Assembly (NCBI GenBank): GCA_028707065.1
Contig: JAQTUZ010000006.1
Location: forward strand, 7,367-71,366
DNA: 64,000 nucleotides
Direction of reading: 5' to 3'
Source: Patescibacteria group bacterium
Lineage (GTDB): Bacteria; Patescibacteriota; Patescibacteriia; Patescibacteriales; WJLG01
The notes below the pieces were generated by a model, which ran no database searches, was not told where the DNA came from, and worked only from the letters and a program-made list of their open reading frames with translations. Position 1 is the stretch's first letter; every line of letters starts with the position of its first letter. Shown piece after piece: positions 20,296-38,383 of the stretch. The translations under genes and the position numbers were made by a program.

Positions 20296-20328
20296 TAAAA
20301 AAATATTTTATTACCAAGATAGAATGTT

Positions 20329-20393: not shown

Positions 20394-20417
20394 CCGAAAA
20401 ACAATGTCTCTTGACTA

Positions 20418-21626: not shown

Positions 21627-21649
21627 TATCTAATTTTAGGTAAAAAATA

Positions 21650-22663
21650 TTATAAAATTTTCACTATTCCCTTATTAGCATCGACTTCCACCAGATCACC
21701 GTCGCGCAAAACCTTGGTGGCTATCTTCGTTCCGATAACACAGGGAATTCCTAACTCGCGGGAAACGATCGCGGCGTGGCAAGTGACTCCGCCCTCGTCC
21801 GTTACGATTGCCGCGGCTTTTTTTATTATGGGGACAAAAGACGGCTCGGTCATCTCGGCCACTAGAATTTCGCCCGGTTGAAAATTCGCGAACTGTTTTT
21901 TTGAGATGATGATCCTCGCCCTTCCCTTTGCCCAGCCAGAGCAAGCGATAGTGCCTTTAATATTATTTCTCGGCTGGACAGTTTCTTTCTCCAGCGTAAT
22001 TTTATTTTCCCTTAATTTAACTTTTAATTCCTCAGGCGTATACAATTTACCATTAAACAAAGCATAGCCGCCCAGGCGCTTTTTGATCTTGGTTAAACTA
22101 TTCAAAGAAAGTTTTTTGATTTCATCCACCATCACAACGGGAAATATTTTTTCCCATCCCGGATTCAACTTATTCCAAACGTCGGCCAAGGGCTGGGAAG
22201 TTGTGCTGGAATATTTTTCATACTTTGCTCTTAATCCCAGCGCTTTATTTTTATCTTTCTCTGGCAGACCTGCCACATTAGGAGCATCAAAAATCAAAGT
22301 CATCGCCGACCACCAGCGGGTTAAAGCACTATAATATTTTCTCGCTTGCCGCGCATTGGCCAGCTTTTTCTTTCCGGAAATATAAAGAAACATATAGGGC
22401 CAATTCTCTTTCAGTGTTTTAGATAATTTTTTGAGAAAACCTCTGTCTTGCTTTGCCTCTCTGAGAATCAAATTATATCTTTCGTCAGTTTCACGCTGAT
22501 TGAAAAAAACCGATGTTTTCTCGCCTTGGCGCAAAAAAAGAGTATGTTTAAGTTTGAGTCCTAAAAATCTCTGGCAGCCCAGCCGATTGCTTTCATTCCA
22601 CATGCAAAAATAAACCAATGGCCGCTCCCGGGAAAATTCTTTGGCAAGTTTTATTGTTTTCAT
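21650..22663 (-). CDS. Phosphohistidine swivel-domain protein, short class (337 aa)
   Basis: C-terminus VTDEGGVTCHAAIVSRELGIPCVIGTKIATKVLRDGDLVEVDANKG. Its start overlaps the upstream stop by 4 nt. Confidence 0.85.
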   Translation of the reverse strand: MKTIKLAKEFSRERPLVYFCMWNESNRLGCQRFLGLKLKHTLFLRQGEKTSVFFNQRETDERYNLILREAKQDRGFLKKLSKTLKENWPYMFLYISGKKKLANARQARKYYSALTRWWSAMTLIFDAPNVAGLPEKDKNKALGLRAKYEKYSSTTSQPLADVWNKLNPGWEKIFPVVMVDEIKKLSLNSLTKIKKRLGGYALFNGKLYTPEELKVKLRENKITLEKETVQPRNNIKGTIACSGWAKGRARIIISKKQFANFQPGEILVAEMTEPSFVPIIKKAAAIVTDEGGVTCHAAIVSRELGIPCVIGTKIATKVLRDGDLVEVDANKGIVKIL

Positions 22664-24165
22664 TTGGTTATGATCTTAACAATTCCCTGGTTCGCGTCCA
22701 CTTCTACCAGATCTCCGTCGCGCAGAACCTTGGTGGCGATCTTCGTGCCGATGATACAGGGTTTTTTCATTTCGCGGGCGATGATCGCCGCATGACAAGT
22801 TATTCCGCCTTGATCAGTGACAAAAGCGGCAGCCTTTTTCATTAGCGGCACATATTCCGGGGTTGTCTGATTGACGACTAAAATTTCTCCGGCTTTAAAA
22901 TTTTTAACCTCAGAAAAACTGAAAATCACCCGAGCAATCCCCCGTACTACACCTCGATAAGCTGCTGCTCCGCGCACCTCTTTCAAATTATGAAATTCTT
23001 GAAAATAATAATTTATCGGCAAATCTTTATCATAGCGGGAGCGAGGAATAAGATGAATATCTTCGTTGCAATAAATCGCCAGCACTCCCTTGTCGCGGCG
23101 TTGTTTTATTTCCAACCAATCAATTTTTTTAAATTTTTCTTCAGACAAAAATTCCATTGGCGTAATACAAAAGATCAGGCTGCGGTCAAGTTTTTCTTTC
23201 TTGGCCACGGCTTGCAGAGCTTCGTAAAAAATCGTATCACTCCGCAGGACTCCGCCTTTCCTTTTATCCTGAATATCCGTAAAAAATTCCGACGTTTCTA
23301 TCAAACCGCGTAAAAACGGTGAAATTTTTAATTTATTAAATAAGATTCGTTTTACCTGGCGATTATGGATATAACGTTCATTTTCTTCCTTAATTTTTTG
23401 ATTGATTTTGTTACCGAGTTTTTTTAATTCTTCCCGGACTTCGCGGTAGATATCGGCGACGGAAACTCTCTGATACAAAAAATAGCTTGAGCGCGCCCAG
23501 AAAAATTTGGCTGCTAATTTTTTACAATCGACCAGGATTAATTTTTTATTTTTTCCAGCAATTATCTTTTGGGCAATTTTTAATTTTCCCAGTTCAAATT
23601 CGTTGACGAAGGAATTGAAAACCGGCGCAGTCAATTTAGCGATCACTTCGCTGGTCGCCTTTTTCCCAAGTTCATCCTTGATTATTTTTTCAAACCAATC
23701 TTCTTCCGAATCATCCAGGAAAGCATCGACCACATATCCATAAACGGCATTATCGATAATCTTCCGATAAAGATTAGCTGTTCTTTTCCTGATCTCCTTG
23801 ACTGACAATTTATTAAAATCAACTTGAGCTAGCTCATTCCAGGCAGAAAGATAGTCGGCCAGCGATTTATTCCAAAGTTTGTAAAATTTTGCGCTGAATT
23901 TATTATCTTTCTTAATTGCGTTAAGAATATCCTTTCTTTTTTGCAACAATAAATTTCTATCCCAGAACCAATCGATATAGTTCGCTCGATTATGGTTTTG
24001 GAAATGAAAACCGTACTGCATCGCATAGGGGCTGGCTTTTTCTCCGTGAGCGACGGCCAAACCCTGCAAAGCCATACCAAACAAATAACCAGGCGCGCTT
24101 TTTTTATAAAAGGCGGTTTTATTTTTAATTCTTGCGAATGATTTTTTAAAAGTATACTGGCTCAT
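22660..24165 (-). CDS. Phosphohistidine swivel-domain protein, long class (501 aa)
   Basis: C-terminus VTDQGGITCHAAIIAREMKKPCIIGT; N-domain LTAPVFNSFVNEFELGKL, AKFFWARSSY, DIQDKRK. Confidence 0.85.
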   Translation of the reverse strand: MSQYTFKKSFARIKNKTAFYKKSAPGYLFGMALQGLAVAHGEKASPYAMQYGFHFQNHNRANYIDWFWDRNLLLQKRKDILNAIKKDNKFSAKFYKLWNKSLADYLSAWNELAQVDFNKLSVKEIRKRTANLYRKIIDNAVYGYVVDAFLDDSEEDWFEKIIKDELGKKATSEVIAKLTAPVFNSFVNEFELGKLKIAQKIIAGKNKKLILVDCKKLAAKFFWARSSYFLYQRVSVADIYREVREELKKLGNKINQKIKEENERYIHNRQVKRILFNKLKISPFLRGLIETSEFFTDIQDKRKGGVLRSDTIFYEALQAVAKKEKLDRSLIFCITPMEFLSEEKFKKIDWLEIKQRRDKGVLAIYCNEDIHLIPRSRYDKDLPINYYFQEFHNLKEVRGAAAYRGVVRGIARVIFSFSEVKNFKAGEILVVNQTTPEYVPLMKKAAAFVTDQGGITCHAAIIAREMKKPCIIGTKIATKVLRDGDLVEVDANQGIVKIITK

Positions 24166-24174: not shown

Positions 24175-25263
24175 TTATTTGATGATTTTCACTATCCCCT
24201 TATCCGCGTCCACTTCCACCAGATCGCCGTCGCGCAGAACTTTGGTGGCGATCTTCGTGCCGATGACGCAGGGCTTTTTCAGCTCGCGAGAGACAATGGC
24301 GGCATGGCAAGTGATGCCGCCCTCATCGGTGATAATGGCGACGGCTTTCTTTAATACCGGCAAATAATCGGGCGTGGTCATTGAAGACACAATAACATCC
24401 CCCGTTTCAACTTTCCCAAAATCGAGGTTTGATAAAACTATTTTAACTTTTCCTTTAGCTTTGCCGGCACAAGCGATCGATCCTTTTATCTCCTCTGCGG
24501 CTTCTGCCTGATATTTTTTTAGTGACCATCCTTTTCTAGCAACCAGATCATCTATTCTTTCCGAGCTTAAGCCGGCACGGGAAACTAAAAAATAATTTTT
24601 TCTTTGTTTGATTATTTTTACATCCGCTTTCCGCCCCGAAAAAATCGCCTGAATTTCTTCTAAAGATAAATACTTTTTTAAAGAATCGTCCTTAAAACCA
24701 GCGCGCTTAACAGCTTCCGCTCCGATCATAATCGAAAAATCATTGACAAGCGGCGCCATTTTTTCAACTTCTCGGCGAGCTGAAATTGCGGCCGTTATCG
24801 ACTGCTCGTATTTAGAGACATCAGCATGATTTTCCATCTGAAAAGGAAAGGAGAGATCAAGTGAGAAAGACGGGCCGATTTCGTCGAGCTTACCAGAAAA
24901 ATCACTGACTAGTTGAAAAAGTTCTTGGCCGGACATACTTCTCAAACCTTCTTTTTTTACCTTTTCACACCAATCCAATAATGCAGAAACCTTCAATCTT
25001 AATTCGCCGACAATTCTAATGAGCCACTGGTCGTCAGCGGAAATCTTGGAAATAATAAAATCTCGTAGCGAAACGTAGCGTTCGACCGGCGGATGATAAA
25101 CCGTTACCACATTATTTTCTCCTTCAATAATTGCATCGGTATAGCTCCAACCGAATTGTTTTTCGAATTCGGTCGTATACGAGCGGTGCCACAATTCGCT
25201 AAATAGCACCGACCAATCGCGTGAAATACTTTTTTCAAATTCAATCCTGTTTTTTTGACTCAT
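24175..25263 (-). CDS. Phosphohistidine swivel-domain protein, short class (362 aa)
   Basis: C-terminus ITDEGGITCHAAIVSRELKKPCVIGT. Confidence 0.85.
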   Translation of the reverse strand: MSQKNRIEFEKSISRDWSVLFSELWHRSYTTEFEKQFGWSYTDAIIEGENNVVTVYHPPVERYVSLRDFIISKISADDQWLIRIVGELRLKVSALLDWCEKVKKEGLRSMSGQELFQLVSDFSGKLDEIGPSFSLDLSFPFQMENHADVSKYEQSITAAISARREVEKMAPLVNDFSIMIGAEAVKRAGFKDDSLKKYLSLEEIQAIFSGRKADVKIIKQRKNYFLVSRAGLSSERIDDLVARKGWSLKKYQAEAAEEIKGSIACAGKAKGKVKIVLSNLDFGKVETGDVIVSSMTTPDYLPVLKKAVAIITDEGGITCHAAIVSRELKKPCVIGTKIATKVLRDGDLVEVDADKGIVKIIK

Positions 25264-25267
25264 TAAT

Positions 25268-26545
25268 TTATTTTAAAATTTTTACGATCCCTTTGTCCGC
25301 GTCCACTTCCACCAGATCGCCGTCACGCAGAACTTTGGTGGCGATCTTCGTGCCGATGACGCAGGGCTTCTTCAGTTCTCGGGCGATGATCGCCGCATGG
25401 CAGGTTATGCCGCCCTCGTCAGTCACAAAAGCCGAGGCTTTCTGCATCGCGGAAATAAAAGACGGCAGAGTCATGGGTGAAACCAAGACCTCGCCTTTTT
25501 TGATCTTGCCCAATTCTCGGGGATGGCGGATGATTTTCACGACTCCTCTGACCACGCCTTTAAAGGCGGATAAGCCCTTGATGTTCTCGCTGGAATTTTC
25601 GGCAAAAGATACTATCGGCTGGTTAGAAATTATTTGGGAACCATGACTATAAAAATAACTGAATTTTTCAGGATAGCGGCGCGGCTCGCCGGCAAAAATC
25701 GATTCAAGATCATAGTGTGCCAATTCCTCAAAGGAAACTCCGATCGATTCCGCCAGCTCCATAAAGATCGGCCGCGCCAAGCCAAGGGCTTCATAGAACT
25801 TATCGGTCCGGTCAGTGCGCAAAAAAACCAATTCTTGAATTTCGGAAAATATTTTTTTGAACCGGGCCGGTATTTTTACTTTGGCCGCGACTGCTCGGGG
25901 AGAATTTCTCTTGATTTCGGCCAAATCCTTAAGGCTGTAAAAATCGGAAAATCCATCCCGGCTTTTCAGCCAGGCGTATTTTTTTCTTACCGCCGCCAAA
26001 CTTTTTCCCGACTGGAGAGCTGAAAGCATTTTTCCATATTCATTTTTTTTCCGCGGCGCACTCGCTTCACCGATAAATTTTTCATCGCCCTTAAAATATT
26101 TTTCCACTTTTTCCGCTACCAATTCGCGGCAATATTCTTCTAAAGGAATAGAAAGCCAAATAAAAGGAAAATAGGCTCTAATCAGCTCTAAAGTTCTCCT
26201 CATTTTTTCCCTGGCCTTCATTTTTTTATTTTTTACCAGAGCCCTGATTGCTTTTTTATTGTTCCGGTGGGTTTTTTCTAATTGCCGAGTGATGTAAAAA
26301 ACGCTTCTTTTTGCCAAAAATTTTTTCAAATAGACAAAATTCTGATCATTGGCTTTCCGGGAATAATATATGTTGGGGAATTGATAAAGCCCGACCTCAT
26401 AACCGAAGCCTTTTAGGCCAACCCTGGTAAAATTTTTCTTCGTCGGCCCGGGCAAGAAAAACGAGGCCACAAAAGCGCCATACGGCCTTTCCAGCCAATG
26501 CACCCATTCAATTTTTCTAGCCTCTTTCAACGATTTCAATTGCAT
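25268..26545 (-). CDS. Phosphohistidine swivel-domain protein, intermediate length (425 aa)
   Basis: C-terminus VTDEGGITCHAAIIARELKKPCVIGT. Confidence 0.85.
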   Translation of the reverse strand: MQLKSLKEARKIEWVHWLERPYGAFVASFFLPGPTKKNFTRVGLKGFGYEVGLYQFPNIYYSRKANDQNFVYLKKFLAKRSVFYITRQLEKTHRNNKKAIRALVKNKKMKAREKMRRTLELIRAYFPFIWLSIPLEEYCRELVAEKVEKYFKGDEKFIGEASAPRKKNEYGKMLSALQSGKSLAAVRKKYAWLKSRDGFSDFYSLKDLAEIKRNSPRAVAAKVKIPARFKKIFSEIQELVFLRTDRTDKFYEALGLARPIFMELAESIGVSFEELAHYDLESIFAGEPRRYPEKFSYFYSHGSQIISNQPIVSFAENSSENIKGLSAFKGVVRGVVKIIRHPRELGKIKKGEVLVSPMTLPSFISAMQKASAFVTDEGGITCHAAIIARELKKPCVIGTKIATKVLRDGDLVEVDADKGIVKILK

Positions 26546-26556
26546 TTAAAATTATC

Positions 26557-27603
26557 TTATTTGATTATTTTCACTACCCCTCGATCGGCATCGACTTCCA
26601 CCAAGTCGCCGTCATGCAAAACCTTGGTGGCGATCTTCGTGCCGATGACGCAGGGCTTCTTCAGTTCTCGGGCGATGATCGCGGCGTGGCAGGTGATTCC
26701 GCCTTCATCGGTAATAATTGCCCCGCATTTTTTAATCAAGGCCATTAATTCCGGGCTAGTGCTCGTCGCCACTAAAATATCTCCCTCATTAAAAACAATG
26801 GATTTTATTTCGTTGGTTAAAACTAAACGCACTGTCCCTTTTGCAAAGCCGCCATAAGCGGAATTACCTCTGACGATATCAGTCAACTTACTGGCTCCTT
26901 CTATTTTACTGATGATTTTGCCCGGATCTTTAACCCAGGAAATTCTTTCCGCACCGTTAAAATTTCGGTAAACGAAAAACTTACCCTTCTTTGATTCGGA
27001 AACTCTTTTCGACAAGTTTACTCTTTTTTTCTGTAATATCTCGTTCAGAGTAACAAAGTTGATTTCCTCTCTGTTTTTCAAACCGAGCGACTCGCGCTCT
27101 TTAAGCGCCAAAGGCACGATGATTTTATTTATCACCCTTTCATAATAAGAAACCATTCTTAACTTTCTGACCAAAGCAAAAATTCTCTTGTCCTTAGTCG
27201 AATTGGTTAGAGCGTCGCCGGATTTAAAAGGCAAAACCGTGCAAAGCAAAGATAGCTCAATCATAAAATCGACGGCCGATTTAAAATCCTTAAAATTATT
27301 CTTTTTAATTTCCCGGACCGCCTTGGTATTTAAAACCAATCCGCGCTTCAGCAACTTTTCCAGTTTATTTTTATTTTTCAGAACTAAATTATTTAGAGCC
27401 CGGTAAAACTTGGCTTGTTCATCTCGGCGCCGATAATATCTTACAACTCCTTTGGGGTGCTCGATCATTAAACAATTCTTAAAATTTGCTCCAACTGTAT
27501 GAAGGTACAATTTAGAATAATACCATTCGCGCCACAAAGAAGCGCCGAAAAGAGTGAATGGCCGGGCAAGATACAATTCCCATTTCTTTATTTTTTGTCT
27601 CAT
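26557..27603 (-). CDS. Phosphohistidine swivel-domain protein, short class (348 aa)
   Basis: C-terminus ITDEGGITCHAAIIARELKKPCVIGT. Confidence 0.85.
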   Translation of the reverse strand: MRQKIKKWELYLARPFTLFGASLWREWYYSKLYLHTVGANFKNCLMIEHPKGVVRYYRRRDEQAKFYRALNNLVLKNKNKLEKLLKRGLVLNTKAVREIKKNNFKDFKSAVDFMIELSLLCTVLPFKSGDALTNSTKDKRIFALVRKLRMVSYYERVINKIIVPLALKERESLGLKNREEINFVTLNEILQKKRVNLSKRVSESKKGKFFVYRNFNGAERISWVKDPGKIISKIEGASKLTDIVRGNSAYGGFAKGTVRLVLTNEIKSIVFNEGDILVATSTSPELMALIKKCGAIITDEGGITCHAAIIARELKKPCVIGTKIATKVLHDGDLVEVDADRGVVKIIK

Positions 27604-27606
27604 AGA

Positions 27607-28493: not shown

Positions 28494-29444
28494 TTATAAA
28501 GTAGTTATCGGCCGGGACTGAACAATATAAAATTTCTTTTTCTCACAGGCCCATTCGATATCGCAGGGAAAATTATAATGTTTTTCAATGCCCAGGCAAA
28601 TTTTAGCCAGTTCAATTATTTCTTTATTGGTCAATTTTTGTTTCTCCTGCGCCGGCTTCAAAACTTTTACCCATTTGATTCTCTTTTTCAAGTCTTTGAC
28701 TAATTTTCTTTCCTGTTGGGCGATATTCACATCCATCAAAAATAAATCTTTTTTGCCCAAGACATAGCTATCCGGCGTGATCGAGCCGGAAACGATCGCT
28801 TCGCCCAGGCCGAAACCGGCCTCGATGATCATTTGGTTTTTATCCTGCGTCACCGGATGAACGGTAAAGGCAATGCCGGAAATTTCCGAATCAACCATTT
28901 TTTGAATGACCACGGCCACGGAAACTTTTGAATCAACCAAACCTTTTTCCTGGCGATAAAAAATCGCCCGCGGCGTAAAAAGTGAAGCCCAGCATCTTTT
29001 CACGTTATCCAACAAAGTTTTCTCGGTCGTATTCAAATACGATTCCAATTCCCCTGCCCAGGATGCGACCGAAGAATCCTCGGCCGTAGCCGAAGAACGC
29101 ACGGCCACGAATTTGGCATCCAACTTTTTAAAATCCGCCTTGATTTCTCTGACGATGTCGGCCGGCATTGTCGCGTCCATGATCAGATCACTAATTTCCG
29201 CGGAAGTCTTGGAAACGGAATTTACATCATCATATTTAACCTTTTTTAATTTGGCCGCGATATCCTGAAACAAATCCGTCTCTTCCAAGAAGCGGTCAAA
29301 GGCCGGCGCCAGAACCACAAATCCCGGCGGCACCGGAATTTTCGCGCCGGTCATCTCGCCCAGCGATGCACCCTTGCCTCCGGCGATATCGACATTCTTT
29401 TTATTCAACTCTTTAAAATTCTTACAAAATTTTTCTTTGGCCAT
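28494..29444 (-). CDS. Stand-alone PEP synthase / PPDK N-terminal ATP-grasp (nucleotide-binding) domain protein (316 aa)
   Basis: VDIAGGKGASLGEMTGAKIPVPPGFVV, VAVRSSATAEDSSVASWAGELESYLN, VAVVIQKMVDSEISGIAFTVHPVT, IIEAGFGLGEAIVSG, ends ...FYIVQSRPITTL. Matches PPDK_N (PF01326-type) with no swivel or TIM-barrel domain attached. Confidence 0.9.
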   Translation of the reverse strand: MAKEKFCKNFKELNKKNVDIAGGKGASLGEMTGAKIPVPPGFVVLAPAFDRFLEETDLFQDIAAKLKKVKYDDVNSVSKTSAEISDLIMDATMPADIVREIKADFKKLDAKFVAVRSSATAEDSSVASWAGELESYLNTTEKTLLDNVKRCWASLFTPRAIFYRQEKGLVDSKVSVAVVIQKMVDSEISGIAFTVHPVTQDKNQMIIEAGFGLGEAIVSGSITPDSYVLGKKDLFLMDVNIAQQERKLVKDLKKRIKWVKVLKPAQEKQKLTNKEIIELAKICLGIEKHYNFPCDIEWACEKKKFYIVQSRPITTL

Positions 29445-29448: not shown

Positions 29449-30996
29449 TTATTTGATTATTTTAACTAAACCATTTTTTAAATCCATCTCTATCAAATCG
29501 CCGTCATGCAAAATTTCGGTGGCGATTTTTGTTCCGATAATACAGGGTACTTTCAACTCCCGGGAAATTATCGCCGCATGCGTGGTGATGCCGCCCTCAT
29601 TAGTGATAATTGCCCCCGCTTTCTTCATTAACGGCACGAATTCCGGCCTCGTCATTCCGGTCACTAAAATTTCGCCTTCTGCCAAGAAATCATTTTCCGG
29701 ATCAAGAACGATTTTTACCCTTCCCTTCACGGCGTTTCCTGATTTTCCCGCCGAAGCGACAAATCCCTTAATTATGCCGGCAGGCAATAATTCTTCTCCC
29801 TGCTTTTTAAATGATCGCTTTATTTCGTCAGCCTCTTGGCCGAAAATATCTTTTGTTTTCAATAAACCTTTTTCAAAATATGAAAAGAAAAGGACTTTAT
29901 TCCTTTTATCCAATTCCTTCGGGGAAATTTTCTTATTTCTTTCGAGAAGCCCGATTAGGTCAGTAAAAAAATAAAAAGACAAATCAGTTCGGGAAATTTT
30001 AAATCTTTTCGCCGTTTCTCCAAGCACCCGATCGATACAATAGATCAGCCGCAAAATATTTTCTTTCCGCTTATCCTGCCAAAAGGAAAAATCTCTGATT
30101 ATCACAAAAAATAATTTCGACTCGGCGGACATTCCATATTTAGCATAAATATTCCGCAAGCTTTTTTTTGCCAAAATTTCCCGGTTCTTTAAGCTATATT
30201 CCTCTTTGTTTATCTGCTTAATGGTCTTTTTTTCGATTTCCGCGGCAAGGGAATTCAAAAAATAATCCTCGTTCAAATAGTTGGCTTTTTTGTAGCCATT
30301 TTGAATCCAAAAATAGCTATCAGCATGATTATCAAGCTCTTGCTTGAACTTTTTAAATTTTATCAAAACAGCCGGATTTTTTTTCAATACCGCATTTTTT
30401 AATTTTGCATCCTTAAGCGCCATTTTAGCCAAGCTTAAAAGATGTAGTTTTTCCCGTTCAATAAAACCGAGCTTTTCCGAAGCGGTTAAGGCATGGATAG
30501 CTTTCGGCAATTCGCTCGCTGGAATATTTTTTAAATTATCGGCATAGTCTTTCTCAGATAAAAAATCCAACGCCTCGGTAATAATCGCGTAGCCGAACAT
30601 CTTTCGGCCAAATTTCTTAAATTCTGCAAGCAGGGCCGCCAAACGCATATTCGAGAAAACGGATAGGTCGGCTAATTTTGTTTCTTGAATTTTTTTTTCA
30701 ATGTTTAAGGAAACTTCCTCAAACTTCCTTCCTTTTTCTTTGAAATAATTTTTATCATTTCTATATTTCTCCGCGACCCAAGAAAGCGTCTGTCTGGTTT
30801 CATCCTCTCTTGACCATTCAAATAAATAATTATCACCGAGATAATAAGCGCAAACCGAAAAGATCTCTTTTTGATAAACTTTTTTTGTTTCTAAATAACA
30901 GGTTTTGAAAAGATCGACAAAACAATTGGCAGCCGGAGTTTCCTCTTCTTTCCATTGATGTAATTCGATAATTTTTAATATTTCTTTAATATTCAT
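29449..30996 (-). CDS. Phosphohistidine swivel-domain protein, long class (about 515 aa)
   Basis: C-terminus ITNEGGITTHAAIISRELKVPCIIGT; N-domain LTASEKLGFIEREKLHLL, DSYFWIQNGY, FWQDKRK. The track start at 31002 is TTG, so ATG 30996 (MNIKEILK) is preferred. Confidence 0.85.
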   Translation of the reverse strand: MNIKEILKIIELHQWKEEETPAANCFVDLFKTCYLETKKVYQKEIFSVCAYYLGDNYLFEWSREDETRQTLSWVAEKYRNDKNYFKEKGRKFEEVSLNIEKKIQETKLADLSVFSNMRLAALLAEFKKFGRKMFGYAIITEALDFLSEKDYADNLKNIPASELPKAIHALTASEKLGFIEREKLHLLSLAKMALKDAKLKNAVLKKNPAVLIKFKKFKQELDNHADSYFWIQNGYKKANYLNEDYFLNSLAAEIEKKTIKQINKEEYSLKNREILAKKSLRNIYAKYGMSAESKLFFVIIRDFSFWQDKRKENILRLIYCIDRVLGETAKRFKISRTDLSFYFFTDLIGLLERNKKISPKELDKRNKVLFFSYFEKGLLKTKDIFGQEADEIKRSFKKQGEELLPAGIIKGFVASAGKSGNAVKGRVKIVLDPENDFLAEGEILVTGMTRPEFVPLMKKAGAIITNEGGITTHAAIISRELKVPCIIGTKIATEILHDGDLIEMDLKNGLVKIIK

Positions 30997-30998
30997 TT

Positions 30999-32444
30999 TC
31001 AACTTAAAATTTTAATCATTCCCTTATCCGCATCGACTTCCACCGTCATCCCGTCACGTAAAACTTGCGTGGCGATCTTAGTGCCGACGACGCAGGGAAT
31101 GCCGAGCTCGCGGGAAATAATCGCCGCGTGGCAAGTGATACCTCCCTCGTCGGTAATGATGGCGCGCGAAATTTTCATAATCGGCACGTAATCCGGCAAA
31201 GTCATGCCGGTGACCAAAATATCGCCCGGTTTTATTTTCTTAAATCCTTCTTGGGCGCCCTGGCAAACCTTGACCGTGCCGGTGACTTTACCCTTGGTGG
31301 CGCCGGTACCTTTGAATTCTTGAATGTCGCCGCCGGCGTTGGCCATTTCTTTTTTTCTTAATTTGATCGCTTTGTCTCCGGAAATTAACTTAATGCCGTT
31401 TTTGCCGGCAATCACTGCCACGGCTTTCAGGCGGCGGGCAATTTCTTTTTTATCAATCTGACCGCCGGCCAGTATTTTCTTTATTTCTTCATGCGTGAAA
31501 AATTCGCGCCCATTTTTTTCAATCTTGCATCTTCGCGCTGCCTCGTTCAACAGTAAATTATTGGCAAAAACCGTCCGCACCTGCATTTCCTTGCGCAAAT
31601 CATGCAAATAAGCGAACTGATCGAATATTTCCAACCAATATTTAACTTTGTCCCCAAAATGATATTTTTTTAAAGCCTCTTGCCTTTGCCGACTGATTTT
31701 TTTCAAATGCTCAGCTCGATCGGCTAAAACTTTTTTCATATTTCTTTCCCGGCGCCGCTTAGCTATTTCCCGACGATAATAATGCATAATTCGGGGCCGA
31801 AGATTTTCCCAGCCCAAACAAACCCACCAGAATTCCTGATAAATTTTGGCGATCTCTCGATCAGAAACCTTTTTTTGCCGAGCCAGTTTAATGATTGCCT
31901 CTTCTTCGCGGCTGACAAATGTCTGATAGATCGGCGCGGATAAAGCCCGATAAAGATCAGAAAATCCCTGCTCGGCAACCGATATTTTATTTTCGCTAAG
32001 TTTGCTTTTTAAGATTTTGGTTAAAAAATTTTCCGAGACCGAATCAAAAGCGTCCAGATCGATCATGGAAAAACCAACTGCCAACCCTGCCTCCTTTTCC
32101 AGATAATCATAAAATTTAATCAAATCCGCGTTGCTGGCCTTGGCCAAATTCATCTTTCTTATTTTTTCCGTCGCCCCGACGGCTTTTTTCACCGCGGCGA
32201 TATATTTACGATAATATTCATCACACTTCTTTTTCTTAGCCAAACCGGCCAACAATGAATTCCCCCATTCGGTTATTTCCTTTTTCGACCATGACCACCA
32301 TAATTTTTCCCCTTCGTTAACATAAAAAATCAGCAAAGAATGCTTTTTGCCGGTCTTGGGGATCGCCCGCGCCATCGCCTTAAAAAAATCCACCCGATGC
32401 AACGGAATCGTCCCTCTGGTATAAATTTCCCATTTATCGTTCAT
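30999..32444 (-). CDS. Phosphohistidine swivel-domain protein, long class (481 aa)
   Basis: C-terminus ITDEGGITCHAAIISRELGIPCVVGT; N-domain LSAPIYQTFVSREEEAII, EFWWVCLGWEN, YLHDLRKE. Confidence 0.85.
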   Translation of the reverse strand: MNDKWEIYTRGTIPLHRVDFFKAMARAIPKTGKKHSLLIFYVNEGEKLWWSWSKKEITEWGNSLLAGLAKKKKCDEYYRKYIAAVKKAVGATEKIRKMNLAKASNADLIKFYDYLEKEAGLAVGFSMIDLDAFDSVSENFLTKILKSKLSENKISVAEQGFSDLYRALSAPIYQTFVSREEEAIIKLARQKKVSDREIAKIYQEFWWVCLGWENLRPRIMHYYRREIAKRRRERNMKKVLADRAEHLKKISRQRQEALKKYHFGDKVKYWLEIFDQFAYLHDLRKEMQVRTVFANNLLLNEAARRCKIEKNGREFFTHEEIKKILAGGQIDKKEIARRLKAVAVIAGKNGIKLISGDKAIKLRKKEMANAGGDIQEFKGTGATKGKVTGTVKVCQGAQEGFKKIKPGDILVTGMTLPDYVPIMKISRAIITDEGGITCHAAIISRELGIPCVVGTKIATQVLRDGMTVEVDADKGMIKILS

Positions 32445-32448: not shown

Positions 32449-33951
32449 TTATTTCAAAATTTTTATCAAGCCCTTGTCCGCGTCAACTTCAACTAAATCG
32501 CCTTCGCGCAAAACTTGGGTGGCAATCTTCGTGCCCACCAGGCAAGGTATGCCCAACTCTCGGGAAACGATCGCCGCGTGGCAGGTTACCCCACCCTCAT
32601 TGGTGACAATAGCGGCGGCCTTTTTCATGGCCGAAATAAGATCGGGACTGGTCGCCTGCGATACCAAGATATTTCCCTTCTTCATTTTACCCAAATCTTC
32701 TATCGTATTAATTATCTTTACAATCCCTTTGGCCTTGCCCGCTTGGGCCGGCATGCCTTTTATCTCGCGGGAGTTTACGTTTATTTTGGAGCTGATAAAT
32801 TTAATCTTATCGAATCCTTTTACTGCTTCCTTGCCAACTTTCATTTCCGTTCCCTGGCCGGAGGAAACTGTGATTAAAAAATCTTTCATTCTTTCTTCAA
32901 CAATTTTCTTCAATTCTTTCGGATTGGTTTCCAAATATTTTTCAAACTCCTCAGCTAAAATATATTTTGATTGTATGGCCGTCAAACCGGCTCTCCGGCC
33001 AAGCTCTTCGTCGATAAATTTCAAATTATACATGGCTTTCAAAAATTCATACTCCCGAACCCATTTATAATAACCCAGCCAACTTATCAGCCCGAACAAC
33101 TTTCTTTCTTTGGTATTCAGTTTTAATTTAGCGGCCGCCTGATTAAAATCATCAAGGGCGCGCTGATTGTAATTATTCAAGTAACCCAAGCGCAGACTAT
33201 TATCGGTTCTCGCCTTCTCCAAAACAAGTTTGGCGAAATAGTCTGAATCCCAAGCTGGCTTATGGGCAAAGTCATAAGAGAGCCAGCCGTATTCGGATAT
33301 TAAATATCGCAGCTTATCCCGAAAAACTCTCTTAAGCTCTTTTGCTGATTTTATTTTTTTATTTTTTGCCGCTTGAGCTAATTTCAAAACATCAATCTCC
33401 TGGTCGTGCGTCTTTAACTTTTTCAAAGGGCTGGTAAGCGCGACAAAGTAATCGGCAAAATTTTCCGGATTATTTTCGGTTTTCTTTCTCAGTATTTTTT
33501 CAGCCTTAAGATACAGAAGGTTATCGTCGCGATAACCGATCATCGTCGGCGCCGCGCCATAAGAATACATTCGGAATAGTTCTTTGATAAAATCTTTAAA
33601 AAATCCGATCAAAACCGCATTTTTCTCTTGGCGCAAATCTTTATTTAAGAATTTGCTCGAAAACTTATTAAGTTTGATCGCTCTTTGATATGCCTCCTTC
33701 AAAATACGCATAAAAAATGCCTGGTCTGTCAGTGCCCGAGCGGCAATCTTGTTTATTGTGTCTTTCATGCCGCGATCTTCCCAGAAGTAAACGCTGCGCG
33801 CGTTTTTCCAATATGTGCCGACATTATTGATCGAACTTTCGGGAAAAACTTTTTTAAAACCGAAAACAGTGGCCGCCATGCAGGTTTTCATCAGTATCAA
33901 TGGGTAAGGACGGTTGTCGAAAAGTTTAAAATATTCCTGTTTCGATTTCAT
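32449..33951 (-). CDS. Phosphohistidine swivel-domain protein, long class (500 aa)
   Basis: C-terminus VTNEGGVTCHAAIVSRELGIPCLVGT; its start overlaps the upstream stop by 1 nt (TAATG). Confidence 0.85.
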   Translation of the reverse strand: MKSKQEYFKLFDNRPYPLILMKTCMAATVFGFKKVFPESSINNVGTYWKNARSVYFWEDRGMKDTINKIAARALTDQAFFMRILKEAYQRAIKLNKFSSKFLNKDLRQEKNAVLIGFFKDFIKELFRMYSYGAAPTMIGYRDDNLLYLKAEKILRKKTENNPENFADYFVALTSPLKKLKTHDQEIDVLKLAQAAKNKKIKSAKELKRVFRDKLRYLISEYGWLSYDFAHKPAWDSDYFAKLVLEKARTDNSLRLGYLNNYNQRALDDFNQAAAKLKLNTKERKLFGLISWLGYYKWVREYEFLKAMYNLKFIDEELGRRAGLTAIQSKYILAEEFEKYLETNPKELKKIVEERMKDFLITVSSGQGTEMKVGKEAVKGFDKIKFISSKINVNSREIKGMPAQAGKAKGIVKIINTIEDLGKMKKGNILVSQATSPDLISAMKKAAAIVTNEGGVTCHAAIVSRELGIPCLVGTKIATQVLREGDLVEVDADKGLIKILK

Positions 33952-35486
33952 TATTTTATAATCTTAATTATTCCGCTTTTCAGATCCATTTCCACGTTAT
34001 CGCCGGTTTTCAATTTCTGCGTGGCGTTTTTGGTGCCGATGATCGCGGGAATGCCGAGTTCGCGGGAAACGATGGCGGCGTGGCAGGCGATGCCGCCTTC
34101 GTTGGTGATCACCGCCTTCGCCTGGCGCATTAACGGGATAAATTCCACTCTCGTCATCGAGGTTACCAAAATATCGCCGGCTTTAATTTTATCTTTATCC
34201 AGATCAAGGACAATCGACACCCGGCCGGAAATTTTACTTTGGCCGGCGGAGGAAGCGACAAAACCTTTCAGTCCTTGGCTTTCCGCCCCCTGGCGCATAG
34301 CGGCAAGAAATAAATCCTTGCCGGCTTGACCGGAAAAAATACTTGGCGCTTCCAGCTCGTTGGTAAAAACCAGGAAAACACCCTCGGACGACCTTTTTTT
34401 AACTTGACTGACTGATATTTTTTTACCGCTCTTTAAAAATTCATCAAGCTCCGCGATTAAATAAGAAGAAATTTCCTCATAGCTTAAACCCAAATACTCC
34501 GCCAAATCCTCAAGAAAAGTAAAAGTATAATAGCACGCCTCCATCATCCATTTTTTGCGCCAATCGATCCAGGTAGCGATCAGCAGGGAAAAATCCAAAT
34601 CCTTTTTATCTGCCTTGGTCAATTTCAACCCACCCAAAATTTTATTTTTTTCCCGCTGAATTTTCCGAAAATTATTTTCTATCTCAGCTAATTCTTTGGC
34701 TAAATTTTTCTTACCCTTATTAATTATTTCCTCTTTAACTTTAGCCAGGAATTCCGCGGCGCTGATGCGGTGAGCGCGATAATAATCGGTTTTGGTCCAA
34801 AAACTCTGCGCCAAATATTTTTTGACTAGCGTGGCAACTTTTTTATCTTGCAGTAATTCAACATTACTTTTTTTACTCCACCCTTTTTTAATCAGATAAA
34901 GGCTGGTTTTTAAAGACGTAATCCGGCCCAGATTCATAACCGACTGTTCGGCCGGATGAGACAGCGTCATGATTATCCGCCGGGCTTCATTGATTTCTAT
35001 TTTATTGCGCCGGGCGAAACGCGGGACCACTTCGCGATTGATCACTTCTCCTTTATCTTCCCCGAGCACGCTATACGGCCACCATTGCCGGGATTTTTCC
35101 TTGAAACGCCGATAAAATTCCCCCCACTCGGCGCGCGACAAAGATTTCTTTTCTCGGATTTCAAATTTACGCCAAAGACTAGCCATCTCTTCGGTTATTC
35201 TTTTCTGTGCGACCATTAGCTCCCGGACTTTTTTCGGATTTTTTTGATAGTCGCGATAGATTTGCGAACCGATATCATTAATCAATCTCTTGGGGGTCAT
35301 CTGATAATAACCGGACTTTTTTCCCGAAGCCTCATAAGTAAATATCGGGCTGAATTTAAAGCCGCTGACCAAATTGAATTTAGCGTAAGCGCTGAAAGCC
35401 AAATCCAAAATCAGCAAATTCGCGGTGGCATTTTGAATATCCAGCTCATTGCTTTTAAGATATTTAAAAATTTGTTTTTTAGTCAT
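33951..35486 (-). CDS. Phosphohistidine swivel-domain protein, long class (511 aa)
   Basis: C-terminus ITNEGGIACHAAIVSRELGIPAIIGT; N-domain QSFWTKTDYY, TWIDWRKK. Confidence 0.85.
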   Translation of the reverse strand: MTKKQIFKYLKSNELDIQNATANLLILDLAFSAYAKFNLVSGFKFSPIFTYEASGKKSGYYQMTPKRLINDIGSQIYRDYQKNPKKVRELMVAQKRITEEMASLWRKFEIREKKSLSRAEWGEFYRRFKEKSRQWWPYSVLGEDKGEVINREVVPRFARRNKIEINEARRIIMTLSHPAEQSVMNLGRITSLKTSLYLIKKGWSKKSNVELLQDKKVATLVKKYLAQSFWTKTDYYRAHRISAAEFLAKVKEEIINKGKKNLAKELAEIENNFRKIQREKNKILGGLKLTKADKKDLDFSLLIATWIDWRKKWMMEACYYTFTFLEDLAEYLGLSYEEISSYLIAELDEFLKSGKKISVSQVKKRSSEGVFLVFTNELEAPSIFSGQAGKDLFLAAMRQGAESQGLKGFVASSAGQSKISGRVSIVLDLDKDKIKAGDILVTSMTRVEFIPLMRQAKAVITNEGGIACHAAIVSRELGIPAIIGTKNATQKLKTGDNVEMDLKSGIIKIIK

Positions 35487-35490: not shown

Positions 35491-36915
35491 TTAACGTAAA
35501 ATTTTCACCACGCCGTGGTTGGCGCGGACTTCAAGAAGCATGCCGGTTTTTAAAACTTTGGTCGCCACTTTTGTGCCAATGATCGCCGGGATTCCCAGCT
35601 CGCGGGAAATTATCGCCGCGTGACTTGTAATTCCGCCCTCGTCGGTGACAATCGCCGCCGCCTTTTTTAAAGCCGTCATAAATTCCGGGCGAGTCATTGA
35701 AGCCACCACCACATCACCAACTTCGACTTTAGCCAATGAGGCCAGATCGCGGCAAATAATCGCCCGACCGACCGCCGTGCCGATATTAGCAATCGAACCA
35801 TGAATTTCTTTTTTGTTTTCCTCGCTGGCGGTGATCCGTTCATTTTTAAAGGCGATTAATTTTTTCGCCGTTTTTTCAGTATAAGAATATTCCTGGCTGT
35901 TATTGGTCAAAAAAACCACGCCGCTCTTTCTAATCTCTAATTGATTTTTCAACGACCTGATGTCTTTGAATGATTTAATCCGGCGCATATCCTTAACTCC
36001 CAAATAAAGTAAAAAAACATACGGGATTTTCATTCGACGGGCGATTTCTTTGAGCAAGCGGGCAAGATAACCGACCGTCCTTAAAGTTTCCGCCTTTCTT
36101 TCATCCTGCCAAATAGCCGCAAAATTAATGATCTTAGCCATCGCTTCGGTCGCGCGGCTTAATTTTATTTTCTCCGGCGGATTCTTTACCGCATTTTTCT
36201 TTTCCGCCGCCGCTATTTTTTTCAATTTTTCCGCGAAAAAATCAGCCTTAAGTTCTTGCACTCCCGCATAACTATTCAAAATCCAAAAATATTTTTTAGC
36301 ATGCTCTGGCAATTTTTCTTTTCTTACCCGGCTGGAAAATTTAAGCAATTTTTTCAGTTCCAATTCTTCTCGGGCGATAAAAGACAGTTTAGTCGGCGCA
36401 GTTAAAATTCCGAAATAATGATTAAATTCGTCTTTATTCTTTATTTCCGCGAATAAACTCTTCTTGAATTCATTCTCGATTTCAATGCCGACGGCGTCCA
36501 CCAAATGGGAAATACCAACCGAATCCATCTGCGCCTGATTTAATTTTTTCAAAATGGCCATCAATTCTCCCTGGAAAATTTTTTTCAGATCAAGCCGGTC
36601 GATTTTTTTAAACAAAGCTCGGTGCGGCTGAAAAATCTGACTATATCTTCTCTTTTGCTGTTTCAAATAATCCGGATTCCGCTTCAATTTATTTTTAACT
36701 ATTCCCCAAATCCGCCGGAAATCATCAGCTAAATACCACATTTCGCCGTAGCCATTGGCATAATTATGGATAAACATGGAATAGCCGAAACCCAGCTCCC
36801 TTTTCATCGCGAAACCGCTGTAGGCCGGCAGATTGAGAAAACTGGGCACGGCGTTGAATCCCTGCACGTACCAATCTTTTTTCAGTGCTCGTTTTAGTAA
36901 ATTAATTTTCCCCAT
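35491..36915 (-). CDS. Phosphohistidine swivel-domain protein, long class (474 aa)
   Basis: C-terminus VTDEGGITSHAAIISRELGIPAIIGT; N-domain LTAPTKLSFIAREELEL, KKYFWILNSYAG, IWQDERK. Confidence 0.85.
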   Translation of the reverse strand: MGKINLLKRALKKDWYVQGFNAVPSFLNLPAYSGFAMKRELGFGYSMFIHNYANGYGEMWYLADDFRRIWGIVKNKLKRNPDYLKQQKRRYSQIFQPHRALFKKIDRLDLKKIFQGELMAILKKLNQAQMDSVGISHLVDAVGIEIENEFKKSLFAEIKNKDEFNHYFGILTAPTKLSFIAREELELKKLLKFSSRVRKEKLPEHAKKYFWILNSYAGVQELKADFFAEKLKKIAAAEKKNAVKNPPEKIKLSRATEAMAKIINFAAIWQDERKAETLRTVGYLARLLKEIARRMKIPYVFLLYLGVKDMRRIKSFKDIRSLKNQLEIRKSGVVFLTNNSQEYSYTEKTAKKLIAFKNERITASEENKKEIHGSIANIGTAVGRAIICRDLASLAKVEVGDVVVASMTRPEFMTALKKAAAIVTDEGGITSHAAIISRELGIPAIIGTKVATKVLKTGMLLEVRANHGVVKILR

Positions 36916-36922: not shown

Positions 36923-38383
36923 TTAATTTAATCTCTTTATTATTCCCTTATCCGCGTCGACTTCGACCAGATCGCCGGTTTTGATTAGCTTGGTCGCGTT
37001 ACGGGTATTGACCAGACAGGGCACGCCGAGTTCGCGGGAGACGATGGCCGCGTGACAGGTCATGCCGCCGTAATCGGTGATCACGGCGGCGGCTTTTCTC
37101 ATCACAATGATATACTCCGGCGAAGTCATGCTGGCTACCAAAATTTCTCCGGGCTTGAATTTATTTTGCTCCTTAAACGGATCAGTGATGATCCGCGCAA
37201 TGCCACGGACGATTCCGCCTTTACCGCGGCTTACTAATAATCCTCTGATTTCTCTGGAAAAAACAATTTTCTCTTCGGCATATTCTTGCCAAAACTTCTG
37301 GAACGTCGCTTTATCGGTAAAATCATAAATTTTCCCATTTTCCGAATACCAGCCGTAATATTTTCTTCTTTTTAAAATTTCCTTTTTATCAATTTTCCCC
37401 CTGACTACTTTTACCAGTTCTTCAAAATAACACCATTGCAACTCGCCGAATTTCCAGGAAGTATTTTTTTCAACGGCCCGCAAAGCCAAATCCCAAAGAT
37501 GATTCTGCCGCCAAATATAGCCTTTGCGGAAATCCTGCCACCAAATCGATTCGCTTAACTCGGCGGCAATGAGGATGATTTTTTTATCCAGCTTGAGTTT
37601 CTTGATTAAATCCGCCTTGCGTTTCCGATTATGCTCAATTTTTTTCTTAATCTCCCTGATGATATTTTCAGCCTTTTCGCGCCTTAATAATCCTTTCAGC
37701 TTAATGCTAAAATATTCCGGGCTTAGGATGCGGTTGCCGCCATAGCTATTCAAAATCCAATGCCAATTTTTTGAATGGTCTTTCAAAGCCGCAGCCAATT
37801 CTTTTTTATTTTTTATCGGAGCCAATTTGAGCAGCGCTAATTCTTCATCCTGAAAAAAAGAATATTTGACCGGCGCGGAAAGGATTTCCAAATATTCGTC
37901 CGCGCGGGTCGGATCGATCTTGGCCAATTCTTTCTTCAATAGATATTCTCCGCCCCAGTTGGCGATTTCCGGCACGTGGACTATCAGCCAGAAACGATTG
38001 TTCAAATCCGCCAACCGATTCAGCGAACGCAGCAAATCCTCTTTGGACAAATCGCTTTTGAATTTATTTTCCAATTCCGGCGCCAGCGCTTCATATTCTT
38101 TTATCCAACGCTCAAATTTCTTCCATTGCGCGCGGTAATTATTTTGATTAAGAAAATAGCGGCGGAAATATTTCAATCCGGTTTCCCGGAGCGTACTGGA
38201 TTGATTGATCCAGATCATGCTTTTGCCTTCCTTAAACAGACAGATATTAGGCGGCCAAGGCCAGGGATAATGTTTGGCGACATCGCGCAAAATACCGATG
38301 ACAAAACCGGTAGGATAAATCAGTTTAATGCTGATCGGCCCCCATTTGAACAATTCTTTTCGGGAATCGATATTAATCTTCAT
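36923..38383 (-). CDS. Phosphohistidine swivel-domain protein, long class (486 aa); first paralog of the array
   Basis: C-terminus ITDYGGMTCHAAIVSRELGVPCLVNT; N-domain LSAPVKYSFFQDEELALL, NWHWILNSYGG, WWQDFRK. Confidence 0.85.
   Translation of the reverse strand: MKINIDSRKELFKWGPISIKLIYPTGFVIGILRDVAKHYPWPWPPNICLFKEGKSMIWINQSSTLRETGLKYFRRYFLNQNNYRAQWKKFERWIKEYEALAPELENKFKSDLSKEDLLRSLNRLADLNNRFWLIVHVPEIANWGGEYLLKKELAKIDPTRADEYLEILSAPVKYSFFQDEELALLKLAPIKNKKELAAALKDHSKNWHWILNSYGGNRILSPEYFSIKLKGLLRREKAENIIREIKKKIEHNRKRKADLIKKLKLDKKIILIAAELSESIWWQDFRKGYIWRQNHLWDLALRAVEKNTSWKFGELQWCYFEELVKVVRGKIDKKEILKRRKYYGWYSENGKIYDFTDKATFQKFWQEYAEEKIVFSREIRGLLVSRGKGGIVRGIARIITDPFKEQNKFKPGEILVASMTSPEYIIVMRKAAAVITDYGGMTCHAAIVSRELGVPCLVNTRNATKLIKTGDLVEVDADKGIIKRLN

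Follow-up and report, generated by a model that had tools for sequence, protein, structure and literature searches.

Probable short-patch gene conversion among swivel domains in a split-dikinase-like gene array of a Patescibacteria genome

A contig of a Patescibacteria metagenome-assembled genome (MAG) contains 15 minus-strand paralogs that share a C-terminal phosphohistidine domain, and three adjacent members of this array carry 59-74-nt patches of nearly identical DNA that probably arose by interlocus gene conversion. Here, we describe the array and its relatives on the basis of a 64,000-nt stretch of this contig, which is referred to as the window throughout. The explanation as a whole, to which we assign a probability of roughly 0.7, is that the 15 genes encode the substrate-binding, His-carrier halves of split small-molecule dikinases of the rifampin phosphotransferase (RPH)/HpeH type and that the similarity of their 3′ ends has three layers, of which conversion is the most recent and the most local. 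It involves a known and ordinary mechanism in a new gene family.

Organization of the array

According to a repeat search, every paralog ends in one copy of a 249-nt 3′ module. The module codes for the PEP-utilizer "swivel" phosphohistidine domain. The copy in g24175 served as the reference of the repeat family, and the percentages below are DNA identities relative to it.

24175..24423, minus strand: swivel module of g24175 (gene 24175-25263), reference copy; PF00391, residues 286-356
25268..25516, minus strand: swivel module of g25268 (gene 25268-26545); PF00391, 75%
26557..26805, minus strand: swivel module of g26557 (gene 26557-27603); PF00391, 71%
9498..9746, minus strand: swivel module of g9498 (gene 9498-10517); PF00391, 72%
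10528..10776, minus strand: swivel module of g10522 (gene 10522-12030); PF00391, 69%
12039..12287, minus strand: swivel module of g12036 (gene 12036-13109); PF00391, 65%
13115..13363, minus strand: swivel module of g13112 (gene 13112-14584); PF00391, 71%
21647..21895, minus strand: swivel module of g21650 (gene 21650-22663); PF00391, 73%
22663..22911, minus strand: swivel module of g22660 (gene 22660-24165); PF00391, 72%
29449..29697, minus strand: swivel module of g29449 (gene 29449-31002); PF00391, 67%
30999..31247, minus strand: swivel module of g30999 (gene 30999-32444); family-derived HMM, 69%
32449..32697, minus strand: swivel module of g32449 (gene 32449-33951); family-derived HMM, 69%
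33951..34199, minus strand: swivel module of g33951 (gene 33951-35486); family-derived HMM, 62%
35491..35739, minus strand: swivel module of g35491 (gene 35491-36915); family-derived HMM, 63%
36923..37171, minus strand: swivel module of g36923 (gene 36923-38383); family-derived HMM, 63%
28494..29444, minus strand: stand-alone ATP-grasp (PPDK_N) gene; PF01326, E=5e-99

PF00391 was detected at the C-terminus of ten paralogs with scores of 78-97 bits (Pfam gathering cut-off, 23.1), and all 15, including the five outside the Pfam scan, had matches to a C-terminal HMM derived from the family. The catalytic His column is occupied by His in 15/15 copies, within the local motif T[DN]xGGxxxH; the swivel His motif has been given as T/S-x-x-G-G-x-x-x-H (PMC12167813). 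The only stand-alone PPDK_N gene in the window (28494-29444) encodes 316 amino acids that comprise this domain alone and match the ATP-grasp domains of PEP synthase and rifampin phosphotransferase. A separate ATP-grasp gene accompanied by swivel genes is also present in two relatives (L143 and L144), and the ATP-grasp protein is 95% identical in amino acid sequence to that of one relative, whereas the swivel genes of that relative are only 59-79% identical.

Because a PDB sequence search with g22660 gave matches confined to the swivel part, placement of the bodies required fold comparison. The AlphaFold2 model of g25268, the sole body modelled (pLDDT 90), has its best PDB matches in rifampin phosphotransferase (5fbu, 5fbt and 5hv1), with more than 500 alignment columns and query-normalised TM-scores of 0.46-0.57, and it superposes best on this single-chain enzyme in both body and swivel. 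The split HpeHI/CreHI/PpsAB architecture has been described previously (PMC12167813). As in those systems, the ATP-grasp component (here 28494-29444) is on a separate polypeptide and the second component combines a helical substrate-binding body with a C-terminal swivel carrying T-x-x-G-G-x-x-x-H. However, HpeHI, CreHI and PpsAB are 1:1 pairs, whereas here one ATP-grasp gene stands beside 15 swivel genes with unrelated bodies, and the likeness to HpeHI-type dikinases is drawn from sequence and one predicted structure in a Patescibacteria MAG. Presumably, the single ATP-grasp protein charges all 15 swivel proteins, and keeping the swivels compatible with it may be of some benefit. The preliminary description of this DNA, made from the letters alone, had proposed a constant module attached to differing bodies, which agrees well with a phosphohistidine carrier on bodies of different substrate types and a single ATP-grasp gene. 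A description of comparable one-ATP-grasp/many-swivel arrays was not found in the searchable literature, which does not prove that none exists.

Divergence of gene bodies and 3′ modules

Pairwise DNA identity among the 3′ modules is 0.56-0.75, and over the last approximately 80 codons the paralogs share 0.48-0.72 of amino acids and 0.58-0.71 of nucleotides. For the gene bodies, nucleotide identity is 0.31-0.41 and amino acid identity 0.09-0.25 (approximately 15%), so that they are, as had been remarked, barely alignable even as protein. The contrast between neighbouring 3′ ends and bodies that was noted at the outset is therefore real, but the term near-identical is too strong for modules that are 62-75% identical to the reference copy. 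When two paralogs have the same residue, they use the same codon in the bodies at a rate of 0.448 (0.442 expected) and in the whole domain at 0.484 (0.405 expected). Amino acid constraint explains most of the 3′ DNA similarity.

Each of the three paralogs searched (g24175, g25268 and g26557) has its own full-length orthologs at approximately 35-69% identity, including sequences named as DPANN archaea, and several further paralogs have clear counterparts in related loci. A comparison of the g25268 body with its closest ortholog gives a dN/dS of approximately 0.16. The bodies represent old, conserved subfamilies on which purifying selection acts; the suggestion that they are diversifying specificity modules is ruled out by the old ortholog families of the searched paralogs and the low dN/dS of g25268.

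Probable conversion patches in three adjacent genes

Near-identical DNA in the strict sense is restricted to two patches within the adjacent trio g24175, g25268 and g26557.

25335..25393, minus strand: patch in g25268, 59 nt identical to 26624-26682, with mismatches on both sides
26624..26682, minus strand: partner of the 59-nt patch, in g26557
24203..24276, minus strand: patch in g24175, 74 nt with one mismatch (24232) relative to 25296-25369
25296..25369, minus strand: partner of the 74-nt patch, in g25268

Since the two patches overlap at 25335-25369, g25268 is a mosaic of both neighbours. The shared strings quoted in the preliminary description are exact (a 57-mer at 25337/26626, a 28-mer at 24204/25297 and a 43-mer at 24233/25326). 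Runs of identical codons beyond chance occur in the trio only, with lengths of 19 (p<5e-5), 14 (p=0.002) and 11 codons (p=0.007), and no run between other paralog pairs survives correction for 105 pairs. In the core of the domain, i.e., the approximately 25 codons just past the catalytic His, dS is 0.30-0.38 within the trio, and most other pairs reach approximately 1 or higher; the upstream half of the domain has values of 1-4 or is saturated. The patches are thus identical beyond chance and bounded by divergence on both sides, as tracts of interlocus gene conversion should be.

Additional evidence comes from the closest relative (L001). Inside the patch, its ortholog of g25268 differs from g25268 and matches its own neighbour, whereas outside the patch it follows orthology. 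In a quartet of g25268, g26557, the L001 ortholog and the L001 neighbour, 15 sites in the upstream domain support orthology versus 1 for within-genome grouping, and the balance is reversed in the patch region, with 7 sites for within-genome grouping versus 1 for orthology (Fisher exact p ~2e-4, computed from the site counts); since L001 (2.8 kb) is the only close relative, this single quartet is the basis for conversion after speciation. Interlocus gene conversion is typically recognized by such a combination of ortholog grouping outside a patch and paralog grouping inside it, and RecA-type recombination would be the likely mechanism.

Other arrays were collected by a contig scan with the g25268 ortholog alignment. 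It returned 79 loci, most of which are ordinary PEP synthases from unrelated phyla because the scan patterns are C-terminal, and only about a dozen arrays were usable. When metagenomes were scanned for the DNA pattern of the core, 57 contigs were retrieved, of which nearly all matched once and none came from a relative closer than L001; being ascertained on the core sequence, these loci were excluded from unbiased codon tables. Identical runs of at least 50 nt were observed in 5/453 within-locus domain pairs versus 0/39,719 between-locus pairs, and runs of at least 40 nt in 9/453 versus 5/39,719. Independent patches were found in L019 (92 nt), L123 (74 nt), L001 (65 nt) and L008 (62 nt).

The relatives L001 and L144 also offer some support for an alternative, namely that whole 3′ ends have been exchanged or duplicated by unequal crossover or partial duplication rather than converted in patches. 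The gene junctions in L001 differ from those of the window and resemble crossover products: its g25268 ortholog carries a tail and intergenic spacer that resemble those of g12036 (KIIKY*, TAAAATATATATGAAGTACGT), with the g10522 ortholog next in order, and the gene upstream joins a different body to a g26557-type swivel and spacer. In L144, several members are missing and colinearity is kept only in part. As a substitute for conversion, however, such swapping appears unlikely, because the patches in the window are internal, with diverged flanks on either side, and reach neither stop codon nor intergenic spacer, into which a simple crossover would extend. Crossover and gene conversion are regarded as compatible, the former being an additional consequence of the same homology, at which crossing-over also appears to rearrange the array between close relatives.

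Codon usage in the core of the domain

Across the family, synonymous identity exceeds expectation in the core only. Same-codon identity there is 0.555, compared with a null of 0.401±0.019 (p<0.001), and it also lies above a null built from the codon usage of the core itself (0.495±0.024, p=0.008). The earlier statement that the identity extends to synonymous positions is hence valid for the 25-codon core and the trio patches but does not apply generally, the bodies being at expectation.

Recombination might be dispensed with if all of the 3′ similarity, synonymous sites included, reflected amino acid constraint plus codon preference at conserved residues. Such an account explains most of the signal (0.484 versus 0.405 expected over the whole domain), and the codons that predominate in the core (ATC, GGC, GCC, ACC and CGC) are mostly the preferred housekeeping codons of the genome, so part of the core excess could be due to codon selection at conserved residues. 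The excess is also common to the window and L144, and it is missing from 6 of the 10 arrays tested. Against it, several core columns are fixed on codons that the genome does not prefer, such as P604, with CCC in 12/15 copies (housekeeping genes: CCC 0.14, CCG 0.69) and CCT in L144, and V615, with GTT in 12/12 (housekeeping 0.29); D618 is GAC in 10/11 and S598 is TCC in 9/10. Constraint and codon preference can neither yield 59-nt and 74-nt patches restricted to adjacent genes, nor explain why identical stretches of at least 50 nt are absent from all between-genome pairs, nor why, at seven patch sites, g25268 agrees with its neighbour and the L001 ortholog likewise with its own. We regard a history without recombination as slightly less probable even than module swapping, and for the trio it is contradicted. 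Amino acid constraint and codon bias, the alternative named in the preliminary description, explain most of the 3′ similarity, but identity in the core (0.555 versus 0.400) and in the trio patches exceeds expectation.

The core is further distinguished by its GC3 of 0.69, compared with 0.56 elsewhere in the domain and 0.44 in the bodies; neither the remaining genes of the window nor other arrays show so large an increase. GC-biased gene conversion is a hypothesis for bacteria, and an increase from 0.44 to 0.69 exactly within the homogenised segment resembles its expected effect. However, selection for preferred codons predicts nearly the same codons, and there is no clear AT-to-GC trend among the seven patch differences, so GC-biased conversion is not demonstrated.

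Comparison between genomes restricts the extent of conversion. Core codon identity is 0.555 and 0.543 within the genomes of the window and L144 versus 0.540 between them (permutation p=0.24). Core uniformity shared with L144 does not reflect recent or ongoing genome-specific homogenisation, and concerted evolution of the whole family is rejected because within-genome identity is not higher. Core codon identity shows no significant relation to distance along the array (Mantel rho=-0.06, p=0.28), and the clear tracts all lie between adjacent genes. Of the two processes originally proposed, gene conversion is retained for three adjacent genes and family-wide concerted evolution is not; the comparison with orthologous arrays that had been recommended gave both results, the L001 quartet backing conversion and L144 showing equal core uniformity between genomes.

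The core might also be conserved as nucleotides for another purpose, whether as part of a structured RNA, as an antisense gene or as a regulatory site within the gene. Antisense ORFs of similar appearance do occur, and look-alike peptides of the kind reported earlier (STSTRSPSRRTLVAIFVPMTQGFF...) were located on the plus strand at 13149, 21681, 22697, 24209, 25302 and 32483; in addition, ortholog dS is lower in the core (0.32) than the gene-body mean (0.55), and GTT at V615 is over-represented in other genomes (0.52 versus 0.31 overall), in line with a weak same-codon preference at some columns. Nevertheless, stop codons interrupt two of the six antisense copies, an Rfam scan of the whole window matched no family, 23 other genomes follow their general codon usage at the core columns, and the window and distant arrays share codons no more often than expected. 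Given these ordinary codons, universal selection at the nucleotide level is rejected for the core, and a nucleotide-level function is very improbable. Least credible of all is an artefact of collapsed repeats or mixed paralog consensus in a metagenome-assembled contig: assemblers are known to struggle with repeated 3′ modules, but the patches are probably shorter than typical final k-mers and have unique flanks, similar patches are present in five assemblies obtained independently in different projects, and the L001 contig shows the same architecture with its own patch sequence.

Proposed model and relation to known systems

In the reading that we favour, each of the 15 genes would join a different ancient N-terminal body to the same C-terminal swivel phosphohistidine domain. 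Purifying selection on the protein sequence of the swivel would account for most of the DNA identity among modules. A second layer would be the synonymous excess and raised GC3 of the core, common to related genomes of the clade, which may stem from decaying ancestral homogenisation, or from selection on codons or biased conversion where the residues are most constrained. Recent non-reciprocal homologous recombination between tandem direct repeats would then have produced the patches in g26557, g25268 and g24175.

Gene conversion in short patches is a familiar process among tandem paralogs, and bacterial examples of interlocus gene conversion or concerted evolution include tufA/tufB, rRNA operons and the 3′ ends of babA/babB in Helicobacter pylori. 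The present case resembles these in that short non-reciprocal patches are copied between paralogs of one genome, are limited to the conserved part of otherwise diverged genes and make paralogs closer than orthologs within the patch. It differs in that homogenisation is weak and local, affecting 3/15 genes with patches below 100 nt, and that whole-family identity within the genome is not above that between related genomes. Unlike in contingency loci, there is no sign that variation made by conversion is being used.

As the swivel ends do not always carry the history of their own gene, phylogenies and ortholog assignments that rely on the C-terminus can be misleading. In MAGs of Patescibacteria and DPANN, the recurrent 3′ modules are likely to be hotspots of rearrangement within arrays and to complicate assembly. 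The genomic context may be of greater interest, in that a highly conserved ATP-grasp gene beside 15 RPH/HpeH-like partners suggests, at the level of sequence, a one-to-many split dikinase system. A more far-reaching idea, which is doubtful but conceivable, is that recombination keeps the swivel core interchangeable so that one ATP-grasp "charger" can serve at least 15 substrate modules, while the shared homology allows modules to be added, deleted, swapped and fused in Patescibacteria and DPANN; if true, this would represent a recombination-driven one-to-many kinase toolkit, which has not been described for dikinases. Fused forms comprise up to 8 units, in one 3768-aa ORF.

Architecture of the swivel gene array

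In the window, which belongs to a Patescibacteria (Candidate Phyla Radiation, CPR) genome, fifteen minus-strand genes between 9.5 and 38.4 kb encode proteins of 337-517 aa, each with a C-terminal PF00391 "PEP-utilising enzyme, mobile domain", the swivel phosphohistidine carrier, which was assigned by Pfam in 10 paralogs and by a family-derived HMM in the other five. The genes discussed here, with paralogs named by their lower window coordinate, are as follows.

24175-25263, minus: g24175, swivel gene
25268-26545, minus: g25268, swivel gene
26557-27603, minus: g26557, swivel gene
28494-29444, minus: stand-alone ATP-grasp gene (PPDK_N, by Pfam), one copy among the array genes
8585-9475 and 27607-28482: two genes without a Pfam match, whose counterparts in loci L143 and L144 from other genomes have faint His_Phos_1 matches
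interspersed in the swivel array: five SAM methyltransferase paralogs
interspersed in the swivel array: two Cys/Met PLP enzymes

The methyltransferases and PLP enzymes (14596-21497, minus) divide the swivel array into two blocks, and the methyltransferases have a short stretch of conserved DNA in common (repeat family D2).

The AlphaFold2 model of g25268 (pLDDT 90) has rifampin phosphotransferase (RPH) as its best match, with both body and swivel covered, and the product of 28494-29444 resembles RPH and PEP synthase in their ATP-grasp domains. Because of these resemblances, the array is predicted to have a split dikinase architecture of the type described for HpeHI, CreHI and PpsAB (PMC12167813), although, in contrast to those systems, a single ATP-grasp gene stands beside fifteen swivel-carrying partners. 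Compared with L144, a locus of a related genome, the ATP-grasp protein is 94.6% identical (L144:4073-5033, dS 0.82) and the swivel-gene orthologs are 59-79% identical, the ATP-grasp partner thus changing far more slowly than its swivel clients. Units of body plus swivel fused in single ORFs were also seen in other CPR and DPANN arrays (L008:598-11902; L010:6922-12913; L075:5272-9502; L012:383-4316), the largest being a 3768-aa ORF with 8 swivel domains from Woesearchaeota, followed by ORFs of 1997, 1410 and 1311 aa with 4, 3 and 2 swivel domains, respectively. No earlier description of this gene family was found in the literature searched.

Protein constraint in the 3′ module

The similarity of the 3′ ends is genuine, yet smaller than first described, and the module is kept mainly at the protein level. 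The shared strings quoted in the preliminary description are exact in the window, and an independent repeat search recovered a 249-nt module in 15 copies at the 3′ ends. The module recurs, but near-identity does not extend to the whole family, as the copies are only 62-75% identical to the reference; pairwise 3′ identity over 80 codons is 0.56-0.75. In codon alignments, amino-acid and nucleotide identities were 0.48-0.72 and 0.58-0.71 over the last ~80 codons, versus 0.09-0.25 and 0.31-0.41 in the bodies (the gene parts upstream of the swivel domain), which are, as had been noted, barely alignable even as protein.

Synonymous similarity was measured as the frequency of the same codon where two paralogs share a residue. 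The observed value was close to expectation in the bodies (0.448 versus 0.442), which are therefore saturated at synonymous sites, and rose above it in the whole domain (0.484 versus 0.405) and in the 25-codon core that follows the catalytic His (0.555 versus 0.400; motif I-x-x-R-E-x-x-x-P-C-x-I-G-T-K-I-A-T-K-V-L-R-D-G-D). The core lies 8 SD over an independent codon-redraw null (0.401±0.019) and also exceeds a null that takes the codon frequencies of the core itself (0.495±0.024, p=0.008). The identity claimed for synonymous positions is thus no general feature of the 3′ ends: the bulk of the 3′ similarity is protein constraint, with a genuine synonymous excess confined to the core.

The six look-alike antisense ORFs, of which two are broken by stops, are a side effect of coding-strand conservation.

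Gene conversion among three adjacent genes

Short, recent gene-conversion patches sit in three adjacent genes. In an identical-codon-run test with match probabilities specific to each column, solely the adjacent trio was flagged, with runs of 19 codons for g25268/g26557 (p<5e-5), 14 for g24175/g25268 (p=0.002) and 11 for g24175/g26557 (p=0.007). The underlying patches, each bounded by mismatches at both ends, make the swivel end of g25268 a mosaic of its two neighbours.

25335-25393 = 26624-26682: 59-nt exact patch, g25268/g26557
24203-24276 = 25296-25369: 74-nt patch with one mismatch, g24175/g25268

Nei-Gojobori dS in the core was 0.30-0.38 for the trio pairs and reached or exceeded roughly 1 in most of the remaining paralog pairs; the upstream half of the domain gave 1-4 or was saturated. 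As an empirical control, the 298 swivel domains of all loci retrieved were compared with each other for identical stretches. Stretches of ≥50 nt occurred in 5 of 453 within-locus pairs versus none of 39,719 between-locus pairs, and those of ≥40 nt in 9 and 5, respectively. A 92-nt match between adjacent genes of L019 includes unusual residues, and further long within-locus matches were found in L123 (74 nt), L001 (65 nt) and L008 (62 nt).

A full-length ortholog family, spanning ~35% to 69% identity, was found for each of the three genes searched (g24175, g25268 and g26557), the top relative of g25268 reaching 85% and some ortholog matches being named as DPANN archaea; these separate families argue that the paralogs split long ago. 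In the closest relative, L001 (2.8 kb), the g25268 ortholog shows 85% protein identity and 84% DNA identity. It tracks g25268 in the upstream swivel domain and differs from it at seven sites in the patch region (ACT, GCC, CGG, ATG, AAA, ATC, GGG), at all of which it equals its own upstream neighbour and g25268 equals g26557. Quartet sites accordingly favoured orthology over within-genome grouping by 15 to 1 in the upstream domain, versus 1 to 7 in the patch region (Fisher exact p ~2e-4, calculated from the site counts). Such a switch is what interlocus gene conversion typically leaves behind, and the conversion would post-date the split between the window and L001. The mechanism is of a known kind, conversion between tandem paralogs, and the homogenising recombination proposed earlier applies to these short patches and not to most of the similarity, which is protein constraint. 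The bodies, previously regarded as diversifying, did not behave as such: comparison of the g25268 body with its ortholog gave a dN/dS of ~0.16.

Between g25268 (25268-26545, minus) and L001:694-1974, dS is very uneven, from 0.19 in codons 1-40 to 1.7 in codons 320-360, a sign that diverged alleles or paralogs may have taken part in additional recombination.

Synonymous and GC3 anomaly of the core

The 25-codon core bears a clade-level synonymous and GC3 anomaly. Its columns carry ordinary codons in 23 other genomes, which were not selected on core sequence, and the window and distant arrays share codons about as often as expected. These codon comparisons revealed no universal conserved nucleotide-level element in the core, and an Rfam scan of the whole window gave no match. 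The excess is not peculiar to the window genome: matching within L144 is 0.543, the same excess as in the window, and window-to-L144 pairs match as often as within-genome pairs (0.540, permutation p=0.24). Matching to the window drops with distance, from 0.62 in L001, 0.54 in L144, 0.47 in L137 and 0.45 in L105 to 0.43, 0.39 and 0.33 in the remoter L024, L019 and L009.

These data fit homogenisation that is older than the L144 split and now decaying; they also fit codon selection particular to the clade, or biased conversion, where the residues are under the strongest constraint. Housekeeping genes prefer most of the favoured codons of the core too (ATC, GGC, GCC, ACC, CGC), and several core columns are fixed on non-preferred ones.

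Core columns and their codons
P604: CCC in 12/15 copies (housekeeping CCC 0.14; CCT in L144)
V615: GTT in 12/12
D618: GAC in 10/11
S598: TCC in 9/10

GC3 climbs from 0.44 in the bodies through 0.56 in the rest of the domain to 0.69 in the core, a larger rise than in any other array examined. Genes lying further apart in the array did not have significantly lower core codon identity.

Probable reshuffling of the array

In L001, the g25268 ortholog terminates in KIIKY*, followed by TAAAATATATATGAAGTACGT, the window counterpart of which is the tail and spacer of the paralog g12036 (KIIKS*, TAAAATATATGAAGTACGT). A g10522 ortholog, not one of g24175, comes next, and upstream a g25268-like body (35% identity) is fused to a g26557-type swivel and spacer. 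L144 partly keeps colinearity, with several members missing. The junctions in these two contigs would be the expected products of unequal crossovers within the shared 3′ module. In a Falkowbacteria genome, g26557 and its neighbour 27607-28482 (together 26557-28482, minus) have counterparts in an isolated pair without an array (L142:10001-11938), with identities of 69% and 55%, respectively.

Other features of the window

The isoleucyl-tRNA synthetase at 49289-52951 (minus, 1220 aa) contains a histidine-phosphatase domain (PF00300, residues 526-697, E=1.9e-30) with a match to the class-I catalytic-domain profile on either side. Two sizeable ORFs, 46036-47964 (minus, 642 aa) and 41362-42222 (minus, 286 aa), had no Pfam match. 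The ORF at 16305-17285 (minus), listed with a TTG start, shares 106 nt with the PLP gene upstream of it (17180-18538, minus) and, from a reading of its translation, probably starts at a downstream ATG. The product of 5236-6228 (minus), beside a Mur-ligase-like gene, is predicted to be a DKNYY-repeat lipoprotein (PF13644, E=5e-35).
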